The notes under the pieces are model-generated. The model was not told where the DNA came from. It did no database searches and worked only from the letters and a program-made list of their open reading frames with translations. The position numbers were made by a program, and so were the translations under genes. From an uncultured delta proteobacterium (GTDB lineage: Bacteria > Desulfobacterota > Desulfobaccia > Desulfobaccales > 0-14-0-80-60-11), in assembly GCA_963812015.1 (NCBI GenBank), contig CAWETI010000002.1, positions 608,001-672,000 of the forward strand: a DNA stretch of 64,000 bases, given 5' to 3'. Positions within the stretch are counted from its first letter, which is position 1. Every line of letters begins with the position of its first letter. Positions 25,524-44,938 of this stretch are shown here, in pieces.

Positions 25524-25679
25524 GATAAATTCCCTATAATTTAAGTTTTTTTAACAGAGATTATGCGGCCGCCGTGGTTGCTTCTGTCTAAAAGAGCTAT
25601 CTGGATTATCTTATTCTGAAGCTTAAATCCGGAAACACTGGCGGCTGGCTACCGCCATAAAGGCCCTGAAAACGCTTAG

Positions 25680-26548: not shown

Positions 26549-27736
26549 TTAAGTATTCCGCAAATATTTATTGTCCGGCGGCCGCCCATAATTGAGAGAC
26601 AAATCCCCTACCCGGGCCATGGCCTCATTCTCGCCGGCAAAGCGGGCTGGGAACTCCACCGACAGCCGCCGGGAAATCTCCCCCAGGGAGCTTTGGCCGT
26701 CCATCAACTCCAGGATGAACCGGTCGATGCGGCCATCCTCTGTCAGAACCGGCACATGGGTAGAGGCCCGTTGCTTCAGGCTAGCTGGAGATACGGGGGC
26801 GCCTAAAAAAGTGGATTGCCGGAACTCGGCCTTTAGCCGCCCCGGCTGGCTCTCGTCCAGGATGCGGGTATCCCAGCGCCAGAGATAATCATCTCCCACC
26901 AGGTTGGCGGCCAGGTCTACCGATACCACATCCCCCGCTTCCAAGTTCATGGGTTCCGGCCAGGGGAAAAAATATTTGGCATAAACCCCGGGGCTTTCGC
27001 CGGGGCGGTTGGAAAAGGATACGCCCGGAGCCAGAAGGGCGTCGAACCAGAGAACGATGCCGTGGGCCGTGCCGGCCCGGTCCGTGGTCCACGCTAATTC
27101 GCACCGGGCATCGGGCTCCGCCACCGTATAAAAATTTAAGGTCCACCAGCATTGGGCCGGGGCCAACATATCCTCCGGCGTTACCCGGGCCGAGTAACTT
27201 TGATTAATGGCCAGTGGCCACGCCGCCCGCAGATCCAGCCCGTAAACATCTTCCTTCCAGGCGGAGGTATGTTTCTCATACACCTCCGGCAATGCCACCA
27301 CCGCGGCCCAGAGGGTATCCTCTTGGGGAATCAAACGCCCTCCGGGAGCCAGAAAACGCTGCCGGGCATCCACAATAGTCGGGATTATTTGTTGAAAAAA
27401 AGGCAGCGACCCGTGCAGGTCGGAAACGATGACGTCCACCGGTTCCGGCAGGGTAATCCGGGTGGAAACGTCCTGGATGAAATGAATCCGCTCCGCGTAG
27501 CCGTTGGCGGCCGCCAGGTCCCGGGCCAGATCGAGGAGATCGCTGGGGTCGATGGCATAAACCCGGGCCGCGCCGCACTGGCAGGCCAACAGGGCGAACA
27601 TTCCGATGCCGGTGCCGATGTCCAGCACCACCGCCCCGGGGCTGACGGCTGAGCGCAGCGCCTCCCGGTAACCGGCCGTCCGCTTGGCATCGAGGATCAT
27701 CTGGCCGTAGCCATCGAGGGAATAAGTATGGGTCAT
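26549..27736 (-). CDS. PRMT-like (protein-arginine methyltransferase fold) SAM methyltransferase with a C-terminal RRE/PqqD-like segment
   Basis: MILDAKRTAGY, VVLDIGTGIG, GAARVYAID, VDVIVSD, RFLAPGGRLIP, HGIVLWFD; tail FILELMDGQSSLGEISRRLSVEF. ATGA overlap with the kinase gene. Confidence 0.8.
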   Translation of the reverse strand: MTHTYSLDGYGQMILDAKRTAGYREALRSAVSPGAVVLDIGTGIGMFALLACQCGAARVYAIDPSDLLDLARDLAAANGYAERIHFIQDVSTRITLPEPVDVIVSDLHGSLPFFQQIIPTIVDARQRFLAPGGRLIPQEDTLWAAVVALPEVYEKHTSAWKEDVYGLDLRAAWPLAINQSYSARVTPEDMLAPAQCWWTLNFYTVAEPDARCELAWTTDRAGTAHGIVLWFDALLAPGVSFSNRPGESPGVYAKYFFPWPEPMNLEAGDVVSVDLAANLVGDDYLWRWDTRILDESQPGRLKAEFRQSTFLGAPVSPASLKQRASTHVPVLTEDGRIDRFILELMDGQSSLGEISRRLSVEFPARFAGENEAMARVGDLSLNYGRPPDNKYLRNT

Positions 27737-28773
27737 ATTGACAGGCTTGATTTTTCCGCCCGATAGTCGCCGCCGGCTTGGAGATGGGAAAAATCCTCCA
27801 GGATGCTCTCGCAGAGTTGGTTCAGGTAGGCGGGTCCGGCCCGGGGAATCAGGCGGCGCACCGGCACCCGCTCCAGCAGGCGGCCCAGGACCTCGAACTC
27901 ACGGGCCCGCAGCTCCTTATCCAAAAACTTCGACCCATAGGTGTTGGCTATCAGCAGCAGCAGCCTTTCCTTCCCCGGGACCTCTTCCACCCGGGGACCG
28001 GCATCCTCCTGCCGCGCCCCCAGGATATAAATGGCCCCTAAGGGGAGAGGCCTAGACTGAAAGCAGTAGCCGGGGGCGGTAAGGTTGAGCCACCGCTTGT
28101 CCCATTCGGGATCCAAGGTATTATCCGAGATGACCGGAGGCAGGGCGGTGGGGGAGCCATAGAGATACACCACCGATTGGGGCCAGAGACAGACATTGGG
28201 GTCCCCCGGGAGCACCCAAAAGGTATCATCCTCCTCCTTAAGAACCGTGAGGTCATCGGTGAGCACCGGGTAGCCCAGGCGGGCAAAGGCCGCGGCGGTG
28301 GTGGATTTGCCGGCGCCCGGAAACCCCAGCACCGTTAGGGCGTGTCCTCCCGCGGCCACGGCGCTGCCGTGCAGACAGGGCGTCCCCCGCCAACGCAGGA
28401 GAATCCCCAGGACCGGGCCCAACAGGTAGGTGGAGAGATATTCCTGGGTCGCGCCTTCGGGCCCCGAGACCCAAAGACGCGACCCCGCAGAGTCCATGAC
28501 GAACTGGCAGCCGTCGCTGTATCTCAGCCGGAAGTATCGGCCTCCGGCCACCTGCCAGGCTCTATAGACGGGTTCGCCGCCCTGGTCATCCTCGAAGCCG
28601 GTTTGCCACAATTCCTGGGGCATCTCCAGGAACCGGCGCCACCATTCCGCCGTGCCCTCATGGCATATTTCCACATCTACCGCCGCTGGCTCCGCCTGGG
28701 CCACTAGACCGGGAATAGGCCGGTCGGACCTTAGCCGCAAGCCGAAGATGTTATAAAACAAAGACGCAACCAT
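27733..28773 (-). CDS. HPr-kinase-like P-loop kinase of the type found in lasso clusters
   Basis: LHGSAV, Walker A GFPGAGKSTT, VLTDD, PLPLGAIYIL; first gene downstream of the precursor. Confidence 0.85.
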   Translation of the reverse strand: MVASLFYNIFGLRLRSDRPIPGLVAQAEPAAVDVEICHEGTAEWWRRFLEMPQELWQTGFEDDQGGEPVYRAWQVAGGRYFRLRYSDGCQFVMDSAGSRLWVSGPEGATQEYLSTYLLGPVLGILLRWRGTPCLHGSAVAAGGHALTVLGFPGAGKSTTAAAFARLGYPVLTDDLTVLKEEDDTFWVLPGDPNVCLWPQSVVYLYGSPTALPPVISDNTLDPEWDKRWLNLTAPGYCFQSRPLPLGAIYILGARQEDAGPRVEEVPGKERLLLLIANTYGSKFLDKELRAREFEVLGRLLERVPVRRLIPRAGPAYLNQLCESILEDFSHLQAGGDYRAEKSSLSI

Positions 28774-28802
28774 GAAAAGCGATGATTCGGCCCTTTGTAA
28801 TG

Positions 28803-28949
28803 CTAAGCTGCAGTTTTATTACGACCAGTCCAACCGCCAGTGTCAGTATTACCATTTCTACCTGTAGCCATGGTAATCTGCTTGACATTGCCGTAATCCA
28901 TCACCTGGGGGGGGTGATAAGCCAGCCGTTCTTTTTTCGTGGATTTCAT
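28803..28949 (-). CDS. Lasso peptide precursor (48 aa): MKSTKKERLAYHPPQVMDYGNVKQITM|ATGRNGNTDTGGWTGRNKTAA
   Basis: AGGAGG RBS 6 nt before the ATG; leader motif YxxPxV..G....T(-2); core starts at Ala with Asp at position 9; lies among B1/B2/C genes. Confidence 0.93.
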   Translation of the reverse strand: MKSTKKERLAYHPPQVMDYGNVKQITMATGRNGNTDTGGWTGRNKTAA

Positions 28950-29157
28950 GATGGTCCTCCTGTCGTGACATGATTTTGGGGTTTAGTCCTGTGAGTTGAT
29001 ATGTTAACATTCCGCATCTGCCGTAAAATTTATGATGATTTCACGGGCCAGATGAAAAAAACCTCTTCCCGAGTTTAACCCCCCAAAGCCTCTCCTTTTT
29101 ATTACCTAATTGCCTTGAAAAAAGCAAGTCTTAATGGTGGTGGCTGTTATCCTAAGT

Positions 29158-31002
29158 TTAGGAGCGAATCACTGATTGCAGAAATTCCTCCAGACCCTTG
29201 ATGCAAGTCATATCGCGGTAGAGCCTGCCCTTAGTTGCTGCAATTTTCTGGCTTATTTGCTCCCGCCAGCTCTCGTCCAGGGCAAGACGCGCGGCCACCG
29301 CCACGTATTCTTCCAAGCTGGTGACGATGGTCTCCGTGACGCCCATCATGGTCAAAAAAGCCATACTGTGCCTTCCCCGCATAAGATTCCCGGGCAGCGT
29401 AACCACGGGCAGGTCACAGGCAAGGGCTTCTAAGGTGGTGTTGCCTCCGGACCATCCAATGCTGTCCAGGAAGATGTCGGACAGGCAATTCAGGGCGTGA
29501 TATTGCGTTGAATCCAGCCGCGGTAAAAGGGTAACATAATCTTCGGAATTTAAGCCATAATTCCCGAATGCCTGATGCAGACGCCGCTGAAATTGGTTAT
29601 TTACGAAAACCGAGTCTCCTTGAATAAAGGCGAATTGACAGTTGCCTACTGCTTTGGCGAGTTGCGGGAAGACGGCATCGTATTGCGGCAGATACTTGAA
29701 TAGGGACTGTGGGCAAAAAAATAAAATACCATTCGACTTAAGGTCGAAACTGGCCCGGCTCAGCCCAGTCTCCGGGAATTCCCGGGGGCTGTAAAATGTG
29801 GAGAGATTGGGCAATTTCACCAGTTTTTCGGTGTAATGCGCTTCAGCTCCCGGAGGCTCCATCAGCTCGCTACTCAGATAGTAGTCCATGGTAGGTAAGC
29901 CTGAGGTAACCGGGTGGCCCCAGGACACGCACTGGATAGGCGCAAGCTTTAATGAAGCCAGCCTGAGAGTCAGGTAATCCATTCCCACTTCAGGATAGAT
30001 CAATATGTGCAGCCGGTCCCCGCGGATCATCCGTGCCAGTTTTGGTAATGAAAAAACGTCTTCCACCAGGCGGACAAAACTCTGCCTCGCCTGCCCGGTT
30101 TCATTGTCCTTTCTAGTTCCTGTGTGGTAGCCGTATAGCTGAAACCGCCGTTTATCTAAATTCTCCCCCCAACCCTTTGCGAGAATCTTCCAAACGGAGT
30201 GTTCCCATAAGAAACCTGAGACAATCCCGACTCGGCAAGGTTCGACCGGATTGGAGGGCGGCATCGAAGGGGCTTGGGCCCATTTCGGGTATCTGGCTGC
30301 CTGAATGCGACAAACCAATTTACCATAGAGACTCTGAAGATCGCGGTCATTGAGTCCCTGATATGCCAAGTAAAAAGGAAAGCAACTCCCCACAGCCTGG
30401 GCCGCCTCCTTAATCTCGGCCGAACTATCTAGCCTGATGGTTTGGCACAGATGCTCCAGTTCCTTTTGATAGCATCTCCGGGTTTGCGCAATCTCGCTCG
30501 CCTGACCGTAAAGAATAGGAGTTTGAGCTATACAAAGATTGAGCCGGGCTCTCACCGAGTCAGGTTTTATAGCCAGGGCCTTTTTTAAACAGTCGAGTGC
30601 CTCTTGCTGTTCTCCTAGGTTAGAGAGAATTGCCCCCAATCTATTGTAATGCTTGGCATTATGAGGATCAAGTTCTATCGCCTTTCTATAGCAAGCGATG
30701 GATAAGCTGGCTAACTTTGGATCTTCGGTTGCCAAAAGAGCCTCCCCTAGTTTACAGTGGGCAGAAACCTTCTTCGGTTTAATTTTAATAGCTTGGCTAT
30801 AACAACGCATAGCCTCAGATAATTTTGCCAGCTCCATTAAAACATCGCCCAGACGAACAAAGGTATCATAGGTTGGTTCTATTTCAATTACTTCGCGGTA
30901 AGTTTTCTCAGCTTCTCGAAAGTTTCCGGATCGGCAGTCTTGCAGAGCTTTTTTTAATCTTTCTCTTATATCAGGTGATAGTTTCCTAATTTCGTGGGAC
31001 AT
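29158..31002 (-). CDS. TPR + GT41-family (OGT/SPINDLY/HMW1C-like) protein glycosyltransferase
   Basis: N-terminal TPRs; RVGIVS..LWEHSV, YPEVGMD, LAPIQCVSWGHPVTSGLPTMDYYLS, QSLFK, DIFLDSIGWSGGNTTLEAL. Confidence 0.88.
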   Translation of the reverse strand: MSHEIRKLSPDIRERLKKALQDCRSGNFREAEKTYREVIEIEPTYDTFVRLGDVLMELAKLSEAMRCYSQAIKIKPKKVSAHCKLGEALLATEDPKLASLSIACYRKAIELDPHNAKHYNRLGAILSNLGEQQEALDCLKKALAIKPDSVRARLNLCIAQTPILYGQASEIAQTRRCYQKELEHLCQTIRLDSSAEIKEAAQAVGSCFPFYLAYQGLNDRDLQSLYGKLVCRIQAARYPKWAQAPSMPPSNPVEPCRVGIVSGFLWEHSVWKILAKGWGENLDKRRFQLYGYHTGTRKDNETGQARQSFVRLVEDVFSLPKLARMIRGDRLHILIYPEVGMDYLTLRLASLKLAPIQCVSWGHPVTSGLPTMDYYLSSELMEPPGAEAHYTEKLVKLPNLSTFYSPREFPETGLSRASFDLKSNGILFFCPQSLFKYLPQYDAVFPQLAKAVGNCQFAFIQGDSVFVNNQFQRRLHQAFGNYGLNSEDYVTLLPRLDSTQYHALNCLSDIFLDSIGWSGGNTTLEALACDLPVVTLPGNLMRGRHSMAFLTMMGVTETIVTSLEEYVAVAARLALDESWREQISQKIAATKGRLYRDMTCIKGLEEFLQSVIRS

Positions 31003-31116
31003 TCAGTTACCTTTTCTATTTAAATTGCATTGAATCTTTTTGCAACATGGGCTGTTAAATAAAGTGCCACCGGAGCTCAATTAGTCTTTTTATGGTCTCC
31101 AACTAGATCAGGATAA

Positions 31117-32949
31117 TCAACACTCAAATTTTGCCAGCCAGTAATTGAGGCTTAAGGGGCGCAGGTTTATCCACAGCCGACCCGGGTCGGTCTCGGTCGT
31201 CGCCGGGGGAACCGCGGCGCGCCGGACATAGGCGGCCAGCCCGTCGCATGGCTCAAAGTTATCCAGCCACCGGGAATCGGGGCGGCGGACCAGGGCCAGT
31301 TCGGGATGGTCGACCATGGGCGTTTTGGGACGGCGGCGGATAAGATCCGGCAGACGCTCCTTGGCCAGTTCCCGGAGCATGATCTTATCCACGCACCAGG
31401 GCAGTGGCGGCAGGCTCAGGGCGTAGGTGAGAAGCCGCACATCCAGCAGGGGATGGCGAAACTCCAGCGGCCCCCCCATAACCCCGGCGTCATACTCCAT
31501 TTCGAAACACCCTTGCAAAAAAGACCCGGCCAGAAAGGCGCAGGCTTCGGGGCGCACCGGGGGCTGGGGCGCCGACCTTCGCTTGAAAAGTTGCCACCGG
31601 GCAGGCAGGTCCAGCCGGGCGCTCAGGTCCGGGTCAAGCCACTGGGGGAACCCGTCCTCAGGCTGGCTCCGGCTGTTGCGAGTGCGCCAGCGATCCAGGG
31701 CGGTCCTGAAACCAACTTGCGGCATATGGCCGTAAAGGAAGAGACTGCGCCCCATTCCCGTTACCAGTGGGGCCAGATGCAGGCTCCGGGCCAACTTGTA
31801 GATATACGATTTGGAGGGGTAAAGAATCTCGTCGCCGCCATGGCCGGTGAGGACTACCCGGCTGTGGATAGCGGCCAGCTTGATCATGTCCAACCCGGCT
31901 GCTGCTCCACGGGGATCGTGGCAGGGCTCCGGTTCGCTCAGGTCGGCCTGGCGCTCAAACAGAGCATAATCATCCTGGGGCAGAAACTCGATAGGGACTT
32001 GCAAATGCCTGGCCACCGCCCCGGCAAAGAAGCGCTCTTCATCTGGGATCAACCGATCGAACACTGCCGTCTGGCAGTGCAGGTCGAAGCGGGGTGACCG
32101 TTCAATCAGCAGTTCCCGGGCCACAGCCGTCACCAGAGGAGAATCCAGCCCGCCGCTGAGATATACCCCTACCCTGTCGGTGCGTAAGCGGTCCGCAACC
32201 GCCTCCCGCAGCAACTCCTGGAACCGGTCCACATAGTCCCGCTGGCGCCGGTAGTGCACGGGGCCTTCCTGAGGCAGGCGCCAGTAGCGCTGCACCTTTA
32301 CGGCGCCCCCTGCCTCCCAGGTCTGGGAGTGGGCCGCGGGCAGGCGCCGGATGTCGACAAAGCTCGTGGTAGCCGGGTCCTGGTTGAATTCAAAGAGGAG
32401 GAAATCGGCGATGACCAGGTCATTGAGCCGGTCGGAAACGTCCGGGTGCTGCCGGATGCAGTTCAGGGTATTGCTGAAAACCAGGCTACGGCCCGTTTCG
32501 GCATAATAGAAGGGCTTGACACCGAAATGATCCCGGGCGCAGAACAGCCGCCGGTGGCGTCCATCCCAGAGGGCGAAGGCAAAATCTCCGATCAGATGTT
32601 GGAGACAGTCGTCCCCCCAGACCTGGTAGGCATGAAGGATCAATTCGACATCGGGGGAATTTTTGGGAACGGCGCAGCCCCGGGCGGCAAGCTGTTTGAC
32701 GAGATCGGCGCGGCCGTCGATACGGGCGTCCGCGGTGATCCACACCTGGCCGTCCAGGGTCAAGGGCTGACAATCCGGCCGGGTGTCATCCACCGTGCGC
32801 AGCAGGGCATGCCCGAGGCCTACTGTGCCCTGGCTCCAGGTCTCCTGGGCATCGGGGCCGCGGAAGGCCAGGAATTCCGTCAGGCGCCCCAGCAACTCCC
32901 GATCCACCGGTTGCCCGTCCAGATTGATGAGGCCCACGATGCCGCTCAT
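31117..32949 (-). CDS. Lasso peptide cyclase (asparagine synthetase-like, protein C)
   Basis: MSGIVG (Ser replaces the Ntn catalytic Cys), RGPD, GDFAFALWD, ARDHFGVKP, LSGGLDS, TGHGGDE, HPLLDVRL. Confidence 0.93.
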   Translation of the reverse strand: MSGIVGLINLDGQPVDRELLGRLTEFLAFRGPDAQETWSQGTVGLGHALLRTVDDTRPDCQPLTLDGQVWITADARIDGRADLVKQLAARGCAVPKNSPDVELILHAYQVWGDDCLQHLIGDFAFALWDGRHRRLFCARDHFGVKPFYYAETGRSLVFSNTLNCIRQHPDVSDRLNDLVIADFLLFEFNQDPATTSFVDIRRLPAAHSQTWEAGGAVKVQRYWRLPQEGPVHYRRQRDYVDRFQELLREAVADRLRTDRVGVYLSGGLDSPLVTAVARELLIERSPRFDLHCQTAVFDRLIPDEERFFAGAVARHLQVPIEFLPQDDYALFERQADLSEPEPCHDPRGAAAGLDMIKLAAIHSRVVLTGHGGDEILYPSKSYIYKLARSLHLAPLVTGMGRSLFLYGHMPQVGFRTALDRWRTRNSRSQPEDGFPQWLDPDLSARLDLPARWQLFKRRSAPQPPVRPEACAFLAGSFLQGCFEMEYDAGVMGGPLEFRHPLLDVRLLTYALSLPPLPWCVDKIMLRELAKERLPDLIRRRPKTPMVDHPELALVRRPDSRWLDNFEPCDGLAAYVRRAAVPPATTETDPGRLWINLRPLSLNYWLAKFEC

Positions 32950-34538
32950 TTTGTGCCCTTTATCGCCCGGTATTTAGCTTTAAAAGCGAGACGTATGTGA
33001 TACCAGGCCCGCTGAACTGCGTTCCCGATATCCCGAGGGATCATCTTAATGGCGGCCCAGACTTCCTGTCTAACCTCGGCCCCTTGCCGCTTTTTCAAGA
33101 AGAGCCGGGCCAAGCGGCTGCGGACCACACAGCCGTCATCACCGGCAGCGATACCCATACGCAGCGATATTATAGCAGTATCAATCTGTCCTTGTGCAGC
33201 ATAAAGCCTACCTAAAATCGTATGTATCCGGAAATGATCGGGGTCCATGAGGAGGGCGCGGTCATTGTGGGAAAAGATGGGAGCCCCTATGGGCAGATAG
33301 CCCCGCAGGCTCAAGTGCAGCGATCTTTCGTACGCCTCAATAGCCTCAGGACCTCGACCTCGCTTCGACAGAACCTTTCCCAAGGTGCGCCAGGCATCCA
33401 CCAGATGGTCGTCAAGTTCCAAGGACTTGCGCAGCCAGGCCTCTGCCTCCTGCCACCGCGTGAAACGGGTCGCCAGTTGTCCCAGGCCGAAATGGGCGTA
33501 AGCGTCTTCCGGATTCAAAGTTAGGGTGCGCCGGTGCTCCTGCTCGGCCTCTGGGTAGCGCCGGTCCCAGTAATACCAGAACCCGCCGCTGCCATAAGCG
33601 GTGCCGTAAGCAGGGTCAAGTTCCCGAGCCCGCCGGTGGCACTCCCGGGCGTCGGTTGGTCTCCCCATATCGGCGTAAGCGCCTGCCAGGAGGAATTCGA
33701 GGGCAGGATTGTCCGGGAGAAACTCTCTGGCCTGAAGATAGGTTTGCACAGCCTGGGGCAGGTTCCCCCCAGTCTTGGCTCGGGCTCCCTCCCGCAGCAG
33801 GGTCATCCCTCGCAGAAATGGCTCGTGATCTCGAACCCCATCCAGGCGCCGGGCCAATTCATCGCCCAGATATTTCCACTGCAATGGGGTAAAGCCTCCT
33901 TCCACCGAATAGGCGATGGTCACCAGTTCGGCCTGGATGCCCATGTCCTTGAGGCCGGTCGCCAAAGCGTCGGGCCAGCACCAGGGAAGTCCCCGATGTT
34001 GGTCGCTGGAGTGGCAGGCCTTGGGAATCACCATATAATCCACGTCGATATCTAATAGGACCTTTTCGGTTATCAGGGGCAGGCCCTGCAACGTGCACAC
34101 CCGCAAGGGCCTCCCCAAAATTGCGCCGGCAATCAGATCTCTTTCCGCCTTGAGGGGATGCGGCTTGCCGGGATATTTTGCCAAAATTTTTTGCAAACTC
34201 CGTACCAAAGGCTTGCGGCTTCCGGCATCCCCCAAGGTCCGATCAGGGACCACCCAAAAGATTTCTCTGACCATGCCTTCCTTCAAGGCCTGGCAGATAA
34301 AGTTGCCAATATTGAGGGAAGACCGGTCTGCGCACCAGCTCAGGTCATCATGGGCGTCCACGTGGACCAGAATTTTCTCACGGACTCCGGCATCCTTCCA
34401 AACAAAATAGGCCTGGTCATGGTTTTCCATGAGATGGACACGCTTCAGAAAGGGTTCTACCTGGCTTAAGGCTGACTTTTGCATATCTTTACTGGTCTGC
34501 TGCCCCGATAATTGTGGCTGCATAATGACCGGCCCCAA
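32946..34538 (-). CDS. UPF0489 / arginase-like metallohydrolase domain fused to TPRs
   Basis: ENHDQAY..W, HVDAHDD (DxHxD), LDIDVDY (DxDxD), VTIAYSVEGGFTP, then TPR repeats. ATGA overlap with the cyclase gene. Confidence 0.75.
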   Translation of the reverse strand: MGPVIMQPQLSGQQTSKDMQKSALSQVEPFLKRVHLMENHDQAYFVWKDAGVREKILVHVDAHDDLSWCADRSSLNIGNFICQALKEGMVREIFWVVPDRTLGDAGSRKPLVRSLQKILAKYPGKPHPLKAERDLIAGAILGRPLRVCTLQGLPLITEKVLLDIDVDYMVIPKACHSSDQHRGLPWCWPDALATGLKDMGIQAELVTIAYSVEGGFTPLQWKYLGDELARRLDGVRDHEPFLRGMTLLREGARAKTGGNLPQAVQTYLQAREFLPDNPALEFLLAGAYADMGRPTDARECHRRARELDPAYGTAYGSGGFWYYWDRRYPEAEQEHRRTLTLNPEDAYAHFGLGQLATRFTRWQEAEAWLRKSLELDDHLVDAWRTLGKVLSKRGRGPEAIEAYERSLHLSLRGYLPIGAPIFSHNDRALLMDPDHFRIHTILGRLYAAQGQIDTAIISLRMGIAAGDDGCVVRSRLARLFLKKRQGAEVRQEVWAAIKMIPRDIGNAVQRAWYHIRLAFKAKYRAIKGTK

Positions 34539-34584
34539 GTAATTGGCAAAGCTCCGGCGACTGTCAAGCCTCCAAAGGGCGAAC

Positions 34585-35088
34585 TTAAGGAGCCGCCGGG
34601 GGGATTATTTCCCGAGGGAAAGGGGGAAACCGCCCGGCCACGTTCGCACCGTCATTCAGCGGCTGGCCCTGGAACTCCACCCAGGCGTGGGCTTCCAGGC
34701 GGCTCGGCTCAGGCTTAACGCCGATGCGCAGCTCTCCGGCAAGCCCCTGGCGGCGCAACAGCCACCAGAGGACCAGGGATCGGGGGAGACAGGTGGGCCG
34801 AAAGAGGCCGTAACGGGCTGCAACCTGCACCAGGCGGGCGGTGGCCCGAGCCTGATCCAAGTCCGACTTTAGGGCAGACAGGTGCGGGGCCAGGGCCTCT
34901 CCCTGGTTCAACCTGGCCTGGAGCCGGCAGAGTCCCCAGCAGCGCAGTCCTAAGGCCACCAGGGGGAGCGCCAGGGAAGCCTGGACCAACAACCACCGCT
35001 CGGCCCCGGAAAGCTGCCATGCTTTCTTTAGATTAATTTTCGTGGAGTTCCAGTAATCCACGCTGCACCATCTTGGACACAAAATCAT
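34585..35088 (-). CDS. Lasso peptide leader protease B2 (transglutaminase-like)
   Basis: TCLPRSL, LRIGV, LEAHAWVE (Cys-His-Glu); true start is probably the GTG near 35062. Confidence 0.92.
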   Translation of the reverse strand: MILCPRWCSVDYWNSTKINLKKAWQLSGAERWLLVQASLALPLVALGLRCWGLCRLQARLNQGEALAPHLSALKSDLDQARATARLVQVAARYGLFRPTCLPRSLVLWWLLRRQGLAGELRIGVKPEPSRLEAHAWVEFQGQPLNDGANVAGRFPPFPREIIPPAAP

Positions 35089-36683: not shown

Positions 36684-37040
36684 ATTCTTTCTTCTTAATT
36701 TCTCGTACGCTCAGATAGTAATGGCCATTACAGTCTGGTGTGGATTTTTTTAGTGTGGCAAGGGCTTGGGGCAGGTCATTTGGACTACTTAGCGAGGCCG
36801 TCGAAAAACCTCTTTGAATCTATTGTGATTTACTTTTGAGAGAGTTTTTAGGCGAAAAATCCCTACGACCTTTCTGATCTCTATCTTCTCTTATCATCGG
36901 TGGCTTCCCTGAGTCTCACCTGCCCCCAGCCTACACATATGCAAGCCCATAGTTCAGGACCTTTGCTATATTATGAACCAGGCAGTACAAGCAGCCAGTG
37001 GATATTCACCTTGATCTTACCTCTTAACGTGAACCGGTCT

Positions 37041-37640
37041 AACAGGATGTTGAAAAACTCGTTTGTTAAGAACCCCAAAGAATCGCTGTCTATAAAACCA
37101 TAAAGCTTTTATAGTTAATGATAACAAAAGGTTATCTGGAGGCAGCGATTATGCGCGGTGACGATATGCAGCAGCAAGCCATGTTCAGCTACCTTTCCCC
37201 TGAAGCTCGAGTGCCCCAGGATCATCCCCTCAGACCCATCCGGAACATGGTGAATCAAGCTTTGGCTGAGCTGGCCGGGGAGTTCCAGGCCATGTATTCC
37301 CGGGAGGGTCGCCCTTCCATCGCCCCGGAGAAGCTGCTGCGCGCCTTATTGCTCCAGGTCCTTTACACCATTCGCAGCGAACGGCTCTTGATGGAGCAGT
37401 TGGATTAAAATCTCCTGTTTCGCTGGTTCGTTGGCCTGTCCATGGACGACAATGTCTGGGACCATTCCGTCTTCTCTAAGAATCGGGAGCGCTTTCTCCG
37501 TTCGGACCTGGCCGCGGCCTTTTTCGGACGCATCCACGAGCAGGCGGCCCAGGCCGGACTGTTGTCGGACGAGCATTTCACCGTGGACGGCACCCTCATT
37601 GAGGCCTGGGCTTCCCTGAAGAGTTTCCGGCCCAAAGACA
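37041..37640 (+). mobile_element. Truncated IS5-like transposase pseudogene
   Basis: MRGDDMQQQAMFSYLSPEARVPQDHPLR...GRPSIAPEKLLRALLLQVLYTIRSERLLMEQLD*NLLFRWFVGL...HFTVDGTLIEAWASLKSFRPKD; in-frame TAA at 37406. Confidence 0.85.
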
Positions 37641-37841
37641 CTCTGATTTTGGGCATACCTCACCCGTCAAGAAGGTGCAGAACGAACGGGAGGGAGATAT
37701 TAACCGGGGCTGGCCCGCAGGCCCGGCCGAGGGCCGAAGCATCTCTATAAGAGTTAATCAGTTCCCATATTTCTGCCATTCTATCAATCCTTGGCACCTG
37801 ACCTGAGTCCCTGGCAGGGATATTATCAACTCCTTTCATTA

Positions 37842-39971
37842 TCAGTTAAATTTAGGATTTAATTTCTGATAACCTTTTTCCAATTCTTGATTCATGAGCT
37901 GGATTTGATTGGTTTTTTGATAACATCGGCAGAGAGAAATATTGATCTTCTCGTCTTCCGGGCTGATTTTTTCGGCTTTTTTCAGTTCAGGGATGGCCCG
38001 CAAATATTCATGGGTCTTTTCGAAGCTCATTCCTAATATCGCATGGACATTGATATCATCTTCCTGACAATTCAGTTCCAAGGACTTATAGACCGCCTTG
38101 ATGGCTTGCCGGTAGTGTTTCTTTTCGAATTGATACCTGGCCATGAAGAGATGAAAGCGGCCGTCATGGGGAACTTTCTTTAAGGCTTTCCGAATAATAG
38201 CCAGGGCCTGACGGCTCTTTTTCTTTTCTTCATAATAGGAAACCAATCCCCTCATTTCTTCTTGACCATCTTTATCTAATAGATAATTACCCAAAACTAA
38301 TATATCCATTTCCGTGCTTAAAAAAACCTCGATCGCGTCAGCAGGTGTTTCGACAATCGGCATCCCACGGATATTAAATGAAGTATTTAAAATGACAGGC
38401 ACACCGGTTATTTGATAGAATTCATTTATCAAATCATAATAAAGTTCATCATCAGCTCTGGTTACGGTCTGCACCCTGGCGGTGCCGTCTACATGAATAA
38501 CCGCAGGTATCTCTTTGCCTTTATCCTCTTTTGTGGTCGCCACCAGCAACATAAAAGGGCTGGGGCAAGAAAGATCAAAGAATTCGGTGGCACATTCCAA
38601 AAGGATGCTGGGGGCATAGGGGCGAAAACTCTCCCGGTGCTTCACCTTTTTGGTTACCGACTCTTTTATCCCGGTCTGCCTGGGGTCGGCCAGAATGCTT
38701 CGGTGACCTAATGCCCTGGGGCCGAATTCAGCACCTCCTTGAAACCAGCCAACGATCTTGCCGGCCGCAATATACTGAGCGGTTCTGCTGAGGAGTTCGT
38801 TTCTGGTCAAAGGGTTTTTTACTATCTTATGCTTGCGCAAAGCGGCCCGAATCTCTCCTTTCTTGTATTTTCTCCCAAGATAAACATTTTTCAGAGGAAA
38901 TCTACTCTTTCCATCGGCTAATTTATGCCAGCCGTATAAGGCGCAACCGATGGCTATCCCATCATCCGTTGCGGCCGGCTGAATAAAAATATTTTTAAAT
39001 GGAGTACTATCCAATATCTTCTTATTCGCAACCGAATTCAGGCCGGCACCTCCGGCTATACAAAGATTCTCTGATCCCGTCATTTCAAACAGCCTATTCG
39101 CCAGGCAAATCATGCCTTTTTCCAGTTCTTCCTGTGCTTTGTAGGCCAGATTTTTGTAAAATTGAGTAAAGTTATCGTTTTTCGGCTTTACGATTGGCAC
39201 CAAGTAGCCTTTGTTGGGCTTGGCAATTTTGAGGTCTAACGCCAGCTGGGCAAATCGGCTATTTTCTATATGGTGATCAGTAATTTCAATGATATCCGGC
39301 CAATCTTTCACAGGTTTGCCGTAGGCGGCCAGTCCCATAGTTTTGCCCGCCTCGGTAACAATAATGCCCGATGACGGATGGTATTTTTCCATTGAAAAAC
39401 CTAATACAATAGAGATGAAATTATATATATAAGCTAGCGAATAATAGGCTTTCATTTGAGGATTTTTGGCCGACCATAACTTCTGATAATTTTTTAGTAT
39501 CTGTTCTATGTTACTGCCTTTGGCGTAGAAACCGCTTTCCGCCTCTGTCCCATTCGATGTTTCACTACCGAATACGTCAGCAACTAGCACCGCACTTTCA
39601 CGAAAAGGAGAGCAAAAATAAGAACTATAGGCATGGGCCAGATGATGTGACGGGTGGGGCAGGCATTTAATTTTAGATTTATCTTTAATCGGTAAGAGAG
39701 ATTTAAGGCTCTCTAAATTGACAGGTTCAACGGCATTATCAGCTACGATTAAATCCACATCATCCAGACCGATATTTGCCGAGTTCAGGCAGTAGGTTAT
39801 GGAGCGCATGGGGGGTATTCTGCTATTCTGGTCTTTCTTGCGTACCTGAAAATATAAGGTTGAGTTCTTGACTCCATCCAGCCGCTCTTCAGCAATGGCA
39901 AATAAGATCCTGCCGTCCTTGAGCAGGCAGGCGCTCCGATCATGACTTAGATTTATTCCTAGGATATGCAT
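37842..39971 (-). CDS. Carbamoyltransferase (NodU/CmcH/TobZ family) with C-terminal TPRs
   Basis: MHILGINLSHDRSA, EERL, HHLAHA, GKTMGLAAYG, AGGAGLNSVAN, EFGPRALGHRSILADP, KHRESFRPYAP, HVDGTARVQ, LNTSFN. ATG 39971 has an AAGGA RBS; the tracked 5' extension is IS sequence. Confidence 0.92.
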   Translation of the reverse strand: MHILGINLSHDRSACLLKDGRILFAIAEERLDGVKNSTLYFQVRKKDQNSRIPPMRSITYCLNSANIGLDDVDLIVADNAVEPVNLESLKSLLPIKDKSKIKCLPHPSHHLAHAYSSYFCSPFRESAVLVADVFGSETSNGTEAESGFYAKGSNIEQILKNYQKLWSAKNPQMKAYYSLAYIYNFISIVLGFSMEKYHPSSGIIVTEAGKTMGLAAYGKPVKDWPDIIEITDHHIENSRFAQLALDLKIAKPNKGYLVPIVKPKNDNFTQFYKNLAYKAQEELEKGMICLANRLFEMTGSENLCIAGGAGLNSVANKKILDSTPFKNIFIQPAATDDGIAIGCALYGWHKLADGKSRFPLKNVYLGRKYKKGEIRAALRKHKIVKNPLTRNELLSRTAQYIAAGKIVGWFQGGAEFGPRALGHRSILADPRQTGIKESVTKKVKHRESFRPYAPSILLECATEFFDLSCPSPFMLLVATTKEDKGKEIPAVIHVDGTARVQTVTRADDELYYDLINEFYQITGVPVILNTSFNIRGMPIVETPADAIEVFLSTEMDILVLGNYLLDKDGQEEMRGLVSYYEEKKKSRQALAIIRKALKKVPHDGRFHLFMARYQFEKKHYRQAIKAVYKSLELNCQEDDINVHAILGMSFEKTHEYLRAIPELKKAEKISPEDEKINISLCRCYQKTNQIQLMNQELEKGYQKLNPKFN

Positions 39972-39989
39972 ACTTTTCCTTTTTCGATG

Positions 39990-41612
39990 CCTTAATCCGA
40001 GATTATGCCGCATACATAGCTGTTTCTGTCTCAACGAGGTTTTGGAGCCTCTTTGGCCGAGCAAAATCTCCCAAACGGTCCTCTTCTCGAGGCCAATTCT
40101 TCTCAGAGGTGGGAAAATAGCACAAATTTGGGCGGAAAGTCAATTTTCCCCAGATTTCGGGCATACTAATCCCTCGGCGACCAGATGCTAACTGGCTGGG
40201 AAGCCTAAGGACCCCAGGCCAGCACTGCCCGACAATAGTGTGCCAGAGGAAAGGCGGAGGCCACATGGACATACCATCTCCGGGCATGGTAAGAAAGCCT
40301 GGCGCCCACTTTGATTAATCGCTTGATCAGCCACTCCATGGACCGTTTCACTTCTTCACCCCAAACATTAGGACTGCCGGATCATATGCAGAAGGTTGTA
40401 GACCAGAACCCCCATCTGTAGCCTGGCCTGGTTGGCCTCGAACCCTTGGCAGCTGGTTTTGTCCCGCCGAAGAATGTTCTTCCCTTCCTTGATACGGTTT
40501 TCTATCTCGGCCCGGCCATTATAGACCTTGATCACCTTGCCGGCAGGTAGCCTGGAGTTGTTGATCACAAAGCCGATCCTGGGGAAAAGCTCGCCCCGGT
40601 GCCACTCGATCTTGGCCACTACCCGGCGAGGCCGGCTCCAACTCTTGGCCTGGTAGTGGAGGTCAACGATTTTGACCTGAATGCCGCTCTGGGGCGGTCG
40701 CCCGACCGGACGACCAAGATGAGGCGCCACCAACCTATCCAGGTTCTTATTTGACGGCAACCGAATGAAATATGTCATACGGTGTTCTTCGCAATACTCG
40801 TAGGCCTCCGGGTTGGCAAAGGCAGCATCGCTACGCAGCCAAAAGAGCCGGAACCAGGGGGGGTAACGCTCCACCAGGGGAGTAATAAATGGCAGAGTGC
40901 CGTCGGCGGAATGGACGTTCCCCGATCTCAGCTTTGCCATCAGACAAACGCCCTCGCTGGCAAAGCAAAAAAGCGGATGGAAACAGTTCTTGCCAAAGTG
41001 GCCATTGTAGGCGACGCCCTCCTGATTGCCATGCACCGGGTCCTCGGTGGAATCCAGGTCGATGATCAACCGCTTTTTGTTCTTCCTCCTTAACAAGGTA
41101 TCAGTGGACCGGGGCAGGGCGGCTTCCAAGACCTGAAGCCCAGCCTCGTTACCCAGGATGTCATTCTCCAACCGGGAGAGCATGGACTGGCTGGCTCCAG
41201 TCTCATGGCCCTTATCAAGAGTAAGCCTGAGGGCTGGATCGATGCGGAGAAAATCTGCATCGTTACAATCTTCATAGCCCGCAGCTATTTGGTAGACTCT
41301 TTGACGCACCATCTAAACCAATGAGTGTTTCGTATGAGTAGGTGATCTCAAATCTTCCAGATAATCTTTCATGGGGTCAATGATCATGAAACGTTCATCT
41401 ACCTCACGCAGTAGGATGAACCCAGTGTGGGAGGATATGGTGGCGCCCTGGAAATCTATCATGATGGCTCGGTTAAAATCCGGCCGGATCACCTCATTCC
41501 GGCTTTCACCACTATCGAGCATCTTTGCGACCCCCGATTTGCTAATATTTGCTGCTTATATCATATAGTTAGGTTGATTTCTATCAGTTTTTGCCGAATA
41601 ATCCAGGTTAAA
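39990..41612 (-). mobile_element. IS1380-family element, transposase with in-frame stops
   Basis: DFQGATISSHTG.LLREVDE...HSLV*MVRQRVYQIAAGYEDCNDAD...DLDST.DP.HG.QEG...YNGRAEIENRIKEGK; related ends TTAATCCGAGATTAT / TTAACCTGGATTAT. Confidence 0.88.
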
Positions 41613-41675
41613 ACTATCTAAATTTCAGAGGGAGAGACTTTGGGAATTCTTAGAAAAGTCATAGCGGATTTATTG

Positions 41676-41924
41676 TCAAGGCTTTGATCTCTTTGCCCAT
41701 CTAGCCTGGACAGCTTTGCGGGCAATCTCGCTACGCTGTTCGGGAGTCAATTTTTCGGCTCGAGCTTTGCCGCCTTTTTTTCCCCCAAGGCGACCTAACG
41801 CCACAGCATGTGGGTTCTTGACCTTTTCTTCTTTATCAAGCTCGCCTTCCGGAATGGGGTCGGGTGCACCGGACCCCATATTATCTTGATCAGATGACCG
41901 ATTCTCCGTTCTTCGCCGAGGCAT
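41676..41924 (-). CDS. Small basic protein with a KGG-like motif
   Basis: KNPHAVALGRLGGKKGGKARAEKLTPEQRSEIARKAVQARW; a motif often seen next to mobile elements; function unknown. Confidence 0.65.
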   Translation of the reverse strand: MPRRRTENRSSDQDNMGSGAPDPIPEGELDKEEKVKNPHAVALGRLGGKKGGKARAEKLTPEQRSEIARKAVQARWAKRSKP

Positions 41925-42342
41925 AACTATTTAATGCCATAACCGAAAGAAAAATTCATCTTAAATTTTTTGCGGCATCACCCCCTCTTTTCTTCACAGA
42001 CCATGGTCATCCCTATTTGGCCTGTTAGGATATTCTGCTACCGCAAACCGGCGTAGGCTAAGAAACTTCATTGAATGTCCAAATATTAATAAGGAGATGT
42101 CCAAAAGCTAATGAAGAAAGGGCACGGACTAAGAAAAAAACAATGTTCATGATTATGTCCTGGACAAAACTGCCATAATTGGATACTAATTATGTAATAG
42201 TATGATTGGTTGTCGAAATGGAGGCCAAGGCTCTTCACAGAGAAAGACAAGCGATTGTATGGGAGTGGCTTCCTGCTAAAAAGTTTCGTTCCCTAATGAT
42301 AATGTAACATTAATGCAGACCTGAGGGACTGGAAACCTCGCA

Positions 42343-42705
42343 ATGAATGCCCGGAATCGTGGAAAAGCTAGTGTCCGCCTTCGATTTAACGGGAGCAAGC
42401 TGAGGATCTTCCGGCGACGAGCTAAGCTTTCGTTAAGTCAGGTGTCTGAAATGACAAGCATCTCCACTTCGTCCCTCAGCGATTATGAATGTGGCCTCAT
42501 AGTGCCTCAACTGCATCAACTTAAGAAGCTTTGCGAGATATATGAGCTTGACCCAATTGAGGTTTGTGAGCTCTTATGGCTTAAATTCGTTGACACCTCT
42601 TTCCTTAAAAGCTTTCGCGCCGCTTGTCAGCAGGCAGGACATACTCCACTCCAAGTTTACAGAAGTCTCATAATAAATTATAAGAATTGGGTTAAAAAGG
42701 AATAA
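42343..42705 (+). CDS. XRE-family HTH transcriptional regulator
   Basis: GSKLRIFRRRAKLSLSQVSEMTSISTSSLSDYECGLIVP..LKKLCEIY. Confidence 0.8.
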   Translation: MNARNRGKASVRLRFNGSKLRIFRRRAKLSLSQVSEMTSISTSSLSDYECGLIVPQLHQLKKLCEIYELDPIEVCELLWLKFVDTSFLKSFRAACQQAGHTPLQVYRSLIINYKNWVKKE

Positions 42706-43120
42706 TCAATTTTGTAGCGAATAACCTGTTGAAAATTGGATATTTTAGAATTAATTTTTGAGAAATTATAAATTCACCTAATTAAAATTATGGGAAATAA
42801 TTTAATAACATAATATATTGATATTAATGGATAATTTAATTTTAATTTAATTAATCGAATTTAAATTTAAATATTTCATCATTTTAGCCAAAAAGTCTTC
42901 CGGTCTCACCGGAAATTATGGCAATGGACATTGGATATCATATTAGTATCTTTATAAACTCAAAACCAAAAATCTTTTTATAAGATTTCCCGTTAAAATC
43001 GCAAATTAAAAATAATTTCCGGTGGTAACGAAAATCATCTCATTTATCCTTCCGTATTCATTGTAAAATCATATAATTGAATACTACTTTCTGATGATTT
43101 GTTACCCTTGGTAATCTCTT

Positions 43121-44938
43121 TTATCGATAAGAACTCGCCTGCATTTCAAATAACCGCGCATACTTACCGGCCATCTGAATCAACTCGTTATGCGTGCCGC
43201 TTTCGAGTATCCGCCCATTTTCCATGACAAAAATATAATCCGCCAGCCTGACCGTCGAAAAACGATGGCTGATGAGCAGAACCATGCGGTCTATAAACAT
43301 TTTCCGGAAGGATTGAAAAACCTCGTATTCCGCCCGGGCATCCATCCAGCTGGTGGGTTCATCCAAAATGATCAATTGGGCTTTGCGCAAGAAGGCCCGG
43401 GCCAGAGCCACTTTTTGCCATTCGCCCTGGCTGAGTTCTCCCTGGTCCTCAAACTCATGGCCCAAAACGGTCTCGTAGCCCCGGGGCAGCTTCTGAATAA
43501 AAATATCGGCTTGGGTCTGTCGGGCGGCACTGATAATCTTATTGTCGTGAGCAGGTAAACTGATGTCTCCCAGCCAGATATTTTCCCGCGCCGTCAGGCA
43601 GTAGCGGGCGTAATCTTGAAGGATAACGCTGATCTCTCGCCTTATGGCATCGGGATCAAACTGGCGCAAGTCAATACCGTCAATGGCTATATTGCCGCTT
43701 ACCGGATCATAGAGACGGCAGAGGAGCTTGATAAGAGTCGTTTTTCCCGACCCATTCTCTCCCACCAGCGCTACCATCTGGCCCGGCAAAATCTGAAGGT
43801 TGATATCCTCCAGGACGGTTCTCTCCGCTGTGGGGTAGTGAAAATTGACCCGTTCTAGCAAGATGCCTTCCTTTATGGGCCGCGGGAAAGCTGCCGGCGT
43901 GCGAGGCTCCACCAGCTTAGGCTTGAGATCGAGGAACTCGTTAAAGTTGGCGAGAAAGAGGTTATCCTCGTAGAGACTGGTCAGGCCGGTCCAGATCTCC
44001 TGGAGAGCCCCCTGACCCCGCTGAAAGGCCCCGTAATACATGACCATATCCCCGATGGTAATCATCCCCTCGACCGTCTGGTAGGCAACGAAAGCGAGGG
44101 CCCCAAAAATTGCCAACGTGGCGCTGGCTTGGGTGACCAAATCCGCCAGGGACCGTTTGGCCGAAATGTGCAGCTTTTCGATCCGGAGCTTCTTTCTTAA
44201 CTCCCGGAACCAACCCATGAAGAGCGGACCCAGGCCAAAGAGCCGGATCTCCTGAGCATGGCCGCCGTCGGTGAGCATCCAATGATAATAATGGGCCCGC
44301 CTTTCAGCCTGGGTGTGCTGGCTCTGCCAATCGTACATCTGCCTGGCGTATTTCAAGCGCATCAAAACCCCGGGGACCGTAGCCACAAACAGCATGGCGG
44401 CAACCCACCAGCGAAATGAGACCAGCAAACCGGCCAGGGCTAAAAGCGAGATGCCGCTTTGCCCCAGTTGCATCAGGCTGTCCATTATCCTCGTCGGCCT
44501 GTAGGTGGCCTCCTGCTGGGCCCGGTGCAGGGTGTCATAGTACTTGGGGTCTTCATAATATTCCAGGTCTACCGCCACCGACTTGCCATGGATGACATCG
44601 GCAACATGATCGGTGACCACCTGGGTCTGGGCTTCCTTGGCAATCTCAGTGAGAGAGCGGCAACAGGCGGCAAACAAGGCCACGGCAGCCGCCAGAACGA
44701 TGAGCAGGGTTACTTTTTTGAGGGAGTCGGTTTTGTCTGGCGAGAGCAGACCAGAGGTGACCGCATCGACAATCAGTTTCATCAGGTAGAGGGAGACCAG
44801 GGGGAGCAAGCCCTGGATCAGAATGAGCCCGAAATTTGCGACCGTCCATCCCGGGGCGCTTTGCCAGACTAGGCGCAAGGCCCGCTCCAGGTGCAGGCTG
44901 TGCCTGATCCTCTCTTTAAGGGTTTTGGCTGGTTGCAT
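43121..44938 (-). CDS. ABC exporter (TMD+NBD), candidate lasso peptide exporter
   Basis: N-terminal TMs; ALVGENGSGKTT, LSQGEWQKVALARAF, ILDEPT, ISHRFSTVR. Confidence 0.9.
   Translation of the reverse strand: MQPAKTLKERIRHSLHLERALRLVWQSAPGWTVANFGLILIQGLLPLVSLYLMKLIVDAVTSGLLSPDKTDSLKKVTLLIVLAAAVALFAACCRSLTEIAKEAQTQVVTDHVADVIHGKSVAVDLEYYEDPKYYDTLHRAQQEATYRPTRIMDSLMQLGQSGISLLALAGLLVSFRWWVAAMLFVATVPGVLMRLKYARQMYDWQSQHTQAERRAHYYHWMLTDGGHAQEIRLFGLGPLFMGWFRELRKKLRIEKLHISAKRSLADLVTQASATLAIFGALAFVAYQTVEGMITIGDMVMYYGAFQRGQGALQEIWTGLTSLYEDNLFLANFNEFLDLKPKLVEPRTPAAFPRPIKEGILLERVNFHYPTAERTVLEDINLQILPGQMVALVGENGSGKTTLIKLLCRLYDPVSGNIAIDGIDLRQFDPDAIRREISVILQDYARYCLTARENIWLGDISLPAHDNKIISAARQTQADIFIQKLPRGYETVLGHEFEDQGELSQGEWQKVALARAFLRKAQLIILDEPTSWMDARAEYEVFQSFRKMFIDRMVLLISHRFSTVRLADYIFVMENGRILESGTHNELIQMAGKYARLFEMQASSYR

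Follow-up and report, generated by a model that had tools for sequence, protein, structure and literature searches.

Our analysis revealed a lasso-peptide gene cluster in an uncultured delta proteobacterium of the Desulfobaccales (assembly GCA_963812015.1), within a stretch of 64,000 nt at positions 608,001–672,000 of contig CAWETI010000002.1; this whole stretch is called the window, and coordinates are window positions. The precursor (A), the recognition element (B1), the leader peptidase (B2) and the cyclase (C) are all present by family match, indicating that the gene run is a genuine, complete lasso-peptide cluster, as a first-pass annotation made from the sequence had proposed. That annotation had also supposed a probable anaerobe as host, which the placement in the Desulfobaccales bears out. 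We think it likely that this is a functional-looking cluster of the class II, kinase-bearing type, and that it represents a widespread uncharacterised subfamily defined by a peptide arginase fused to tetratricopeptide repeats (TPRs). From the encoded enzymes, the predicted product is an ornithine-bearing, phosphorylated, sugar-decorated and methylated lasso peptide of an uncharacterised kind. The window member additionally carries a TPR-bearing GT41 glycosyltransferase and is split from its exporter by an insertion borne by insertion sequences (ISs).

Genes were called from the open reading frame (ORF) listing of the window together with Pfam and NCBIfam profile searches. Eight genes lie on the minus strand in the order B1, B2, arginase-TPR, cyclase, GT41-TPR, precursor, kinase and a methyltransferase of the protein arginine methyltransferase (PRMT) fold; including a divergent PF14907 nucleotidyltransferase, the lasso gene run spans 26549–36683. 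B1 (35033–35317, minus strand; 94 aa) is a PqqD-type recognition element (RRE) for peptides made on the ribosome and modified after translation (RiPPs), matching PF05402 at 48.8 bits (cutoff 23.4) and the NCBIfam lasso PqqD models at 32–33 bits, under their cutoffs. Its 3′ end overlaps by 56 nt the start of B2 (34585–35088, minus strand; 167 aa), a transglutaminase-like lasso leader peptidase (PF13471, 79.6 bits; NF033537 lasso_biosyn_B2, 81.2 bits against a cutoff of 33). The cyclase (31117–32949, minus strand; 610 aa) is an asparagine-synthase-like macrolactam synthetase (PF00733, 111.6 bits), and its best NCBIfam model is the lasso cyclase NF033535. ATGA overlaps occur at two junctions, kinase/methyltransferase and arginase-TPR/cyclase. 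The first-pass annotation had read both overlaps correctly, along with the places and order of all ten genes, including the nucleotidyltransferase, a carbamoyltransferase-TPR and an ABC (ATP-binding cassette) exporter further out.

Recurrence of the gene set in genomes and metagenomes

The arrangement is far beyond chance. It recurs in all three related genome loci and in 16 of 17 well-flanked metagenome loci; the question whether the gene set recurs with lasso genes elsewhere, raised by the first-pass annotation, is thus answered positively. The genome loci (L001–L003) were found with the cyclase as query in one genome per species, gene orders being established by tblastn and Pfam; the scan yielded three loci, all in metagenome-assembled genomes of Desulfobaccales or of a “delta proteobacterium”, with cyclases 56–72% identical to that of the window. 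The order in L001 is B1, B2, arginase-TPR, C, A, kinase, methyltransferase, nucleotidyltransferase, Wza, Wzc; in L003 it is nucleotidyltransferase, B1, B2, arginase-TPR, C, A, kinase, methyltransferase, Wza, Wzc. L002 reads ABC, B1, B2, radical SAM, C, A, kinase, nucleotidyltransferase, GT41, an unknown ORF, GT41, Wza. Thus B1-B2-C-A-kinase plus the nucleotidyltransferase are kept in 3/3 loci, the arginase-TPR and the methyltransferase in 2/3, and GT41 in 1/3. Across the 83 genomes of the Desulfobaccales order (G000 counted), the kinase was found in 11, the methyltransferase in 6 and the arginase domain in 4. L002 is the closest arginase-free relative, and the arginase slot between B2 and the cyclase is occupied there by a 483-aa radical SAM enzyme (L002:8074–9525).

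A metagenome scan with an alignment of 21 arginase-TPR sequences found at least 302 relatives, so uniqueness of the cluster is not supported. Eighty loci were kept for analysis, and their genes were found with profiles built from our own alignments: B1 in 56, B2 in 49, the cyclase in 43, the kinase in 33, the methyltransferase in 24 (19 near full length), the nucleotidyltransferase in 17 and GT41 in 3. At least one of B1, B2 and C is present in 63 of the 80, and none of the 12 loci without any lasso-linked gene is longer than 4.3 kb. In the 17 well-flanked loci, which have at least 3 kb on each side of the arginase gene, core genes occur in 16, the kinase in all 17, the nucleotidyltransferase in 10, the methyltransferase in 9 and GT41 in 1. 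The metagenome loci are in part kin or duplicates (L019/L020, L045/L046, L068/L070, L085/L086), and these figures are counts, not independent trials. The arginase-like, PRMT-like and GT41 genes, listed as tailoring genes in the first-pass annotation, all recur in such lasso clusters.

The family is also large at the protein level. A protein search with the arginase domain returned 533 proteins at E 0.001 or better; the best 120 of them are nearly all about 500 aa long with TPRs and are named merely “tetratricopeptide repeat protein”. Hosts named among the homologues are Desulfobaccales, Bryobacterales and Acidobacteriia. The 533 proteins and at least 302 metagenome stretches belong to poorly studied soil and sediment bacteria, and one successful expression would open up many sequences of the family. 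Other cassettes seen in the metagenome loci are PhyH and 2-oxoglutarate (2OG) oxygenases, a multicopper oxidase and GT4. Individual loci show further variation: a PF14907 nucleotidyltransferase fused to a methyltransferase domain (L025:12926–14656), two PRMT-fold paralogues in one cluster (L047:4231–5400 and 10320–11339), and a locus in which precursor, cyclase and kinase are each present twice (L050).

Precursor, core peptides and the arginase-TPR enzyme

The precursor gene (28803–28949, minus strand) lies between the GT41 and kinase genes, has AGGAGG as ribosome-binding site 7 nt upstream of the ATG, and encodes 48 aa: MKSTKKERLAYHPPQVMDYGNVKQITMATGRNGNTDTGGWTGRNKTAA. Residues 1–27 are the leader and residues 28–48 the predicted core. 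In an alignment of 18 precursors, Y11, P14, G20 and T26 are invariant and form the canonical Y-x-x-P...G...T-x lasso leader, in which Thr occupies position −2. The 21-residue core begins with Ala and carries Asp as its ninth residue. We propose that B1 would bind this leader motif, that B2 would cleave after precursor residue 27, and that the cyclase would join core Ala1 to Asp9. The window core contains two Arg, at core positions 4 and 16, and also an N-K-T sequon. The L002 precursor has an extra residue at the leader–core junction, leaving no Asp at core positions 7–9 by the usual rule.

The arginase-TPR gene (32946–34538, minus strand) encodes 530 aa, with a peptide-arginase-like domain (residues ~30–235; NF052474, 8brp) followed by a TPR domain (~240–530). 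The N-terminal 250 residues match, in the Protein Data Bank (PDB) by sequence, only the peptide arginase 8brp (OspR), at E 4e-8, and the H-V-D-A-H-D-D and L-D-I-D-V-D-Y stretches align with the OspR motifs. All seven positions of the metal motifs H-x-D-x-H-x-D and D-x-D-x-D (H59, D61, H63, D65, D163, D165 and D167) are invariant in 21 sequences. The AlphaFold model (pLDDT 87, pTM 0.83) has as its best structural match, of 48,161 chains, 8brp_A OspR, with Z 16.7 and rmsd 2.5 Å over 171 residues (model residues 30–235). This match came only from the exhaustive VIA search; Foldseek with the whole model returned TPR proteins only.

The core peptides provide a second line of evidence. Arginase-bearing loci supplied 32 distinct cores, 29 of them with Arg, whereas of the four arginase-free clusters only L002 has Arg in its core, with G002, G023 and G071 lacking it; G071 was counted as arginase-free on the basis of a negative genome-wide search in a genome that is 98% complete. 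There is also an experimental precedent, since PbsE, a TPR-containing arginase, was shown both in vivo and in vitro to turn Arg of biphenomycin-like peptides into Orn (PMC12257519). The OspR fold, the invariant metal motifs, the PbsE precedent and the frequency of Arg in the cores together suggest that the arginase-TPR enzyme most likely makes ornithine from core Arg; in the window peptide, it would act on Arg at core positions 4 and/or 16.

This assignment has to be weighed against the alternative that the protein is a scaffold, or another hydrolase of the ureohydrolase/deacetylase fold acting on peptide or sugar, and makes no ornithine. Its match to NF052474 pept_arginase reaches 47 bits (E 1.8e-12) against a cutoff of 350, it does not match PF12640 at E 0.01 or better, and in three arginase-bearing loci the core contains no Arg. 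Of the 120 best-listed homologues, 2 have a recorded PF12640 match. In contrast, the top structural match is a peptide arginase, the His and Asp positions of both metal motifs are all invariant, most cores contain Arg, and Arg-to-Orn conversion by the TPR-arginase PbsE is experimental. We therefore regard the alternative as distinctly unlikely and favor ornithine formation.

The window enzyme shares its fold and metal motifs with OspR of the landornamide system, and its combination of an arginase domain with TPRs with PbsE, to which it is likened by description. Both known systems act on an Arg-containing RiPP, as is proposed here. Unlike OspR and PbsE, the window arginase lies in a lasso cluster, a setting described in no searchable paper. 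Literature negatives here and below refer to searchable papers. Within it, ornithine or a peptide arginase in connection with lasso peptides is represented only by reviews mentioning both separately; “lasso peptide” with UPF0489 gave no paper, lasso with PF12640 one general review only, and lasso with Acidobacteria and tetratricopeptide no paper. For TPR together with lasso peptide, the PbsE paper was the only relevant one. Ornithine would thus be new to lasso peptides as far as the searchable literature goes.

Citrulassin is described as a lasso peptide with an enzymatically altered Arg side chain, citrulline, and an altered Arg side chain is predicted here as well. There the Arg is deiminated, and the enzyme responsible is encoded elsewhere than in the cluster. 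In the window, by contrast, an arginase-fold enzyme is encoded inside the operon and predicts ornithine instead. The lasso modifications listed in PMC9266682 (2022) are disulfide formation, phosphorylation, methylation, acetylation, hydroxylation, epimerisation, citrullination, succinimide formation and linearisation. A term search of PMC13352647, an interlocked-peptide review of June 2026, found no occurrence of “ornithine”, “arginase” or “carbamoyl”. The claim of the first-pass annotation that no characterised lasso cluster combines these enzymes stands, in that none was found in the searchable literature. In addition, the TPR domains on three enzymes of the window suggest a mode of substrate docking other than the usual RRE.

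Candidate enzymes for phosphorylation, glycosylation and methylation

The kinase gene (27733–28773, minus strand; 346 aa) follows the precursor gene in the window and in all relatives. Its product is HprK-like: it matches TIGR04352 HprK_rel_A through the P-loop only, and PDB matches are HPr kinases at E 0.37 only, again weak P-loop matches. H135, K156, D173 and D174 are invariant in 12 homologues, which fits, by description, the His-Lys-Asp-Asp motif given for lasso kinases (PMC9266682). For kinase-bearing lasso clusters, the same source describes a C-terminal Ser as “extremely conserved”. In the window precursor the last residue is Ala, and among 35 distinct family cores the C-terminal residue is Ser in 3 and Thr in 4. 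Because few cores end in Ser or Thr, yet 30 of 35 have Ser or Thr among the last five residues, the target is probably a near-terminal hydroxyl, a departure from the known C-terminal-Ser type. In the window peptide, the kinase would phosphorylate the hydroxyl of a Ser or Thr close to the C-terminus, and the Thr in the K-T pair is the most likely candidate.

Two enzymes are candidates for glycosylation, and the PF14907 enzyme and/or the GT41-TPR enzyme would add a sugar. The nucleotidyltransferase (35535–36683, plus strand), divergent from B1 and PsmN-like, matches PF14907 at 131.2 bits (cutoff 31.2), and sequence comparison with the PDB gave no useful relative; its homologues are found in L001, L002 and L003 and in 10 of the 17 well-flanked metagenome loci. 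PsmN is required for the hexose on the phosphoserine of pseudomycoidin (PMC6993621). The pair of kinase and nucleotidyltransferase had been recognised in the first-pass annotation as being of the paeninodin/pseudomycoidin type, and both the PF14907 match and the H, K, D, D motif agree with this. The GT41 enzyme (29158–31002, minus strand; 614 aa; PF13844, 66.2 bits against a cutoff of 25) has N-terminal TPRs at residues 25–160. The nearest matches of its catalytic half are SPINDLY (E 1.5e-26) and bacterial OGT homologues, with weaker HMW1C-like matches (E 1e-8 to 1e-9). Since GT41 is nearer to SPINDLY/OGT than to HMW1C-type N-glycosyltransferases, O-glycosylation appears the better guess. Copies 54% identical occur in the L002 lasso cluster, and GT41 genes are present in the L020 and L036 lasso loci. 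The only lasso glycosyltransferase found described in the searchable literature is the GT2-type IgtG, a membrane GT2/deacetylase that glycosylates the mature lasso peptide on Ser (PMC11912497). Glycosylation of a lasso peptide is common to the IgtG systems and to our prediction; the candidate here is a soluble, OGT/SPINDLY-like GT41 with TPRs.

These features place the cluster near those of paeninodin (pade) and pseudomycoidin (psm). It shares with them the split B1/B2, the order C, A, kinase, the HprK-like kinase with H, K, D and D (PadeK/ThcoK/PsmK, likened by motif description), a PF14907 nucleotidyltransferase (PsmN) and an ABC exporter. In contrast to those systems, the window precursor lacks a C-terminal Ser, and the window adds the arginase-TPR, the PRMT-fold methyltransferase and the GT41-TPR. 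The family cores also differ in being rich in Gly, Thr, Arg and Ser and in being aromatic-free in 29 of 35 cases, and the hosts are Desulfobaccales and Acidobacteria-type bacteria, whereas paeninodin and pseudomycoidin come from Firmicutes.

The methyltransferase (26549–27736, minus strand; 395 aa) combines a Rossmann S-adenosylmethionine domain with a PRMT beta-barrel (PRMT1, E 1.3e-27; PF22528, 38.6 bits) and an extra C-terminal three-helix domain. Foldseek with its model returned PRMT2, CARM1 and PRMT1 (E 2e-27, TMt 0.78–0.86). The gene lies directly after the kinase in the window and in L001, L003, G002 and G071; of the 14 metagenome loci in which the two are found together, 7 show this order. 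In PRMT1, the two Glu of the double-E loop hold the guanidinium. In the HMMER alignment, the double-E loop corresponds to S-D-L-H-G-S-L-P-F-F-Q-Q of the window enzyme: the first Glu is replaced by Asp, the second by Gln, and the THW loop aligns to unrelated residues and is not conserved. The methyltransferase is present in G002 and G071, in which the cores lack Arg and contain Lys. Because the double-E and THW loops are incomplete and the enzyme accompanies such Arg-free, Lys-containing cores, methylation of a primary-amine side chain near the C-terminus is favored over methylation of arginine, and the enzyme would N-methylate Lys or ornithine. Lys or Arg is found among the last six residues in 31 of 35 cores.

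A true arginine methyltransferase that puts methylarginine into the core, whether it works apart from the arginase or shields one Arg from it, would agree with the best sequence and structure matches, which are all type I PRMTs, with the first acidic residue of the double-E loop, which is D or E in 12/12 homologues, and with the two Arg of the window core. The second Glu, however, is present in only 3 of those 12, and a Pfam match to PrmA, a methylase of Lys and N-terminal amines (E 9e-8), points the other way, as do the missing THW loop and the Arg-free cores already described. We consider arginine methylation rather doubtful and retain methylation of Lys or ornithine. The term “arginine methyltransferase-like” of the first-pass annotation is therefore supported for the fold and not for the implied substrate. 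Arginine methyltransferase with lasso peptide gave one unrelated paper in the searchable literature, and the PRMT-fold and OGT-like GT41 enzymes would both be types of tailoring enzyme new to lasso peptides.

A RiPP precedent for arginase action followed by N-methylation is provided by the enteropeptins, which contain N-methylornithine derived from Arg (PMC9811515). Enteropeptins are sactipeptides, another RiPP class, and in the present family methyltransferase and arginase are not strictly paired. An obligate arginase–methyltransferase pair making methylornithine was accordingly rejected as a rule, as G002, G071 and G019 each have one enzyme without the other. The G002 cluster, from the same genus (G002:C2:77685–78830; L088), contains B1, B2, C, A, kinase and methyltransferase, with no arginase and an Arg-free core; its methyltransferase carries one in-frame TAA.

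The last ~90 residues of the methyltransferase form three helices in the predicted model. This tail gives weak PqqD matches in 7 of 10 homologues (best E 8e-4), and hhalign of the tail against the B1 alignment gave a probability of 3%, which is not supportive. Stand-alone ORFs of 117 aa between B1 and the arginase gene (L017:3087–3437, L019:8491–8841 and L020:1476–1826) match only this tail (profile positions 299–383, E ~1e-24). Since the tail also occurs as a separate ORF, it is a separable module, perhaps a second peptide-recognition element.

The composition of the cores bears on how the thread might be retained. The 35 distinct cores are 13–22 residues long and consist of 21.5% Gly, 10.9% Thr, 10.2% Arg, 9.5% Ala and 9.5% Ser, these five making up ~60% of all core letters. 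Lasso peptides need bulky residues to keep the thread in the ring, and the near absence of such residues is unusual for threaded peptides. A C-terminal phosphate and sugar have been suggested as a lock in pseudomycoidin (PMC6993621), and the bulk-poor cores fit this suggestion. As the cores are small, hydrophilic and almost without bulky residues, the thread could be held only by added groups near the C-terminus, such as phosphate and sugar on Ser/Thr and a methylated Lys or ornithine, and trimming of Arg to Orn would then tune what passes through the ring. We put forward this picture of enzymatically installed plugs tentatively, together with a second, weaker strand in which the product may act on or attach to the exopolysaccharide (EPS); taken together, the two are a possibility to which we give rather little weight. 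The bulk-poor cores make the pseudomycoidin “installed plug” idea directly testable.

Several observations weigh against our overall interpretation of the cluster. No product has been observed, and what we infer is all of the chemistry, including the steps, their sites and their order; gene identities, folds, catalytic motifs and co-occurrence are what was seen. Besides the arginase-TPR, other proteins score under the cutoffs of curated models, among them the cyclase (362 bits against 525 for NF033535), the precursor (21.5 bits against 33 for NF033528 lasso_cyano) and the kinase (33 bits against 200 for TIGR04352). The window precursor and most family cores lack the C-terminal Ser expected of paeninodin-type peptides. 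The arginase-free L002 core still contains Arg, and three arginase-bearing loci have cores without it. The methyltransferase occurs without the arginase in G002 and G071, and the arginase without the methyltransferase in G019 and in 8 of the 17 well-flanked loci. GT41 has a GC content of 0.496, below that of its neighbours, and is rare (3 of 80 metagenome loci). Insertion sequences lie within the span of the cluster. Finally, related loci are not independent of one another, and the support is therefore smaller than the co-occurrence counts suggest.

Inserted segment, exporter and polysaccharide genes

The ABC exporter (43121–44938, minus strand; 605 aa; ABC_tran and ABC_membrane) is separated from the nucleotidyltransferase by an inserted 6.4 kb segment (36684–43120). 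Its homologue in L002, 75% identical, lies directly upstream of B1, which suggests that the window protein is probably the transporter of the cluster, displaced by the insertion, and that it would export the product. By Pfam and NCBIfam matches, the segment contains a DUF772 transposase fragment (37118–37408), a carbamoyltransferase-TPR gene, a split IS1380 transposase (40368–41522), an 82-aa ORF and a helix-turn-helix (HTH) gene. The carbamoyltransferase (37842–40064, minus strand; 740 aa) is of the NodU/CmcH type with C-terminal TPRs (PF16861, 235 bits; PF02543, 126 bits).

The first-pass annotation had counted six candidate tailoring enzymes. If all six acted on the lasso peptide, the carbamoyltransferase-TPR might, for example, carbamoylate ornithine or the sugar. 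Its TPR tail resembles those of the arginase and GT41 enzymes, and TPR-less carbamoyltransferases occur near lasso genes elsewhere: in L049 (172–5613), one is joined by a GT4 gene and both lead directly into B2-B1-arginase-C on the same strand, with a 4-nt overlap between the GT4 stop and the B2 start, and in L066 one lies ~8 kb off. These are, however, the only 2 such cases among the 80 metagenome loci. The window gene is flanked by transposase remnants, its GC is 0.435 (against 0.57–0.64 for five of the six core lasso genes measured, and 0.52 for B1), and a counterpart is absent from the L001–L003 loci. Relatives with no more than 50% identity turn up in 56 of the order's 83 genomes, and none of those in the 83 genomes covers the TPR tail or lies at a lasso locus. 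A repeat search around the gene found no convincing terminal inverted repeats that would mark IS ends. As the gene is IS-flanked, low in GC and absent from relatives, it most likely arrived with the insertion sequences and is not part of the pathway; a role for all six enzymes is unlikely. Carbamoylation may be a genuine option in some family members even if not in the window.

The insertion also raises the possibility that the cluster, split from its exporter, is decaying or silent and makes no product. The IS remnants between the nucleotidyltransferase and the exporter, three further transposase genes in the EPS operon and the in-frame TAA in the related G002 methyltransferase could be read in this way. 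Against it, all ten window ORFs are intact and of full length relative to homologues, translational coupling is kept, and the precursor has a ribosome-binding site. Decay is thus very unlikely, and we continue to regard the cluster as functional-looking.

The EPS/capsule genes (~750–26286) lie on the minus strand directly downstream of the lasso operon and are co-directional with it, which corrects the head-on arrangement given in the first-pass annotation. They comprise a NusG-like gene (25873–26286), Wza, Wzc, a flippase, a DegT aminotransferase, methyltransferases and glycosyltransferases. NusG-like/Wza/Wzc genes adjoin family lasso loci in the window (21920–26286), in each of the three related genomes and, among the 80 metagenome loci, in 9 (overall L001, L002, L003, L032, L042, L065–L072 and L085/L086 besides the window). 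At least five arrangements relative to the polysaccharide export genes were seen, among them same-strand downstream, divergent upstream and several kb away. Because the lasso loci adjoin these genes in at least five arrangements, the lasso product may act on, or attach to, the exopolysaccharide of the cell, the weaker of the two strands above.

Three transposase/integrase genes (rve, IS1595-like and DDE_3) interrupt the EPS operon at 8813–9655, 10048–10725 and 20288–21316, and the 10–14 kb stretch of the window has a GC of ~0.40. Between the ABC exporter and an RmlD-like gene lies a 370-aa ORF (45794–46906, minus strand; GC 0.66) with no Pfam or NCBIfam match; RmlD-like and dehydratase genes follow on the plus strand from 46274. 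Near the window end are an ADP-ribosylglycohydrolase gene (58855–59778, plus strand) and a gene encoding an HNH endonuclease domain fused to a HIT domain (61824–62861, minus strand).

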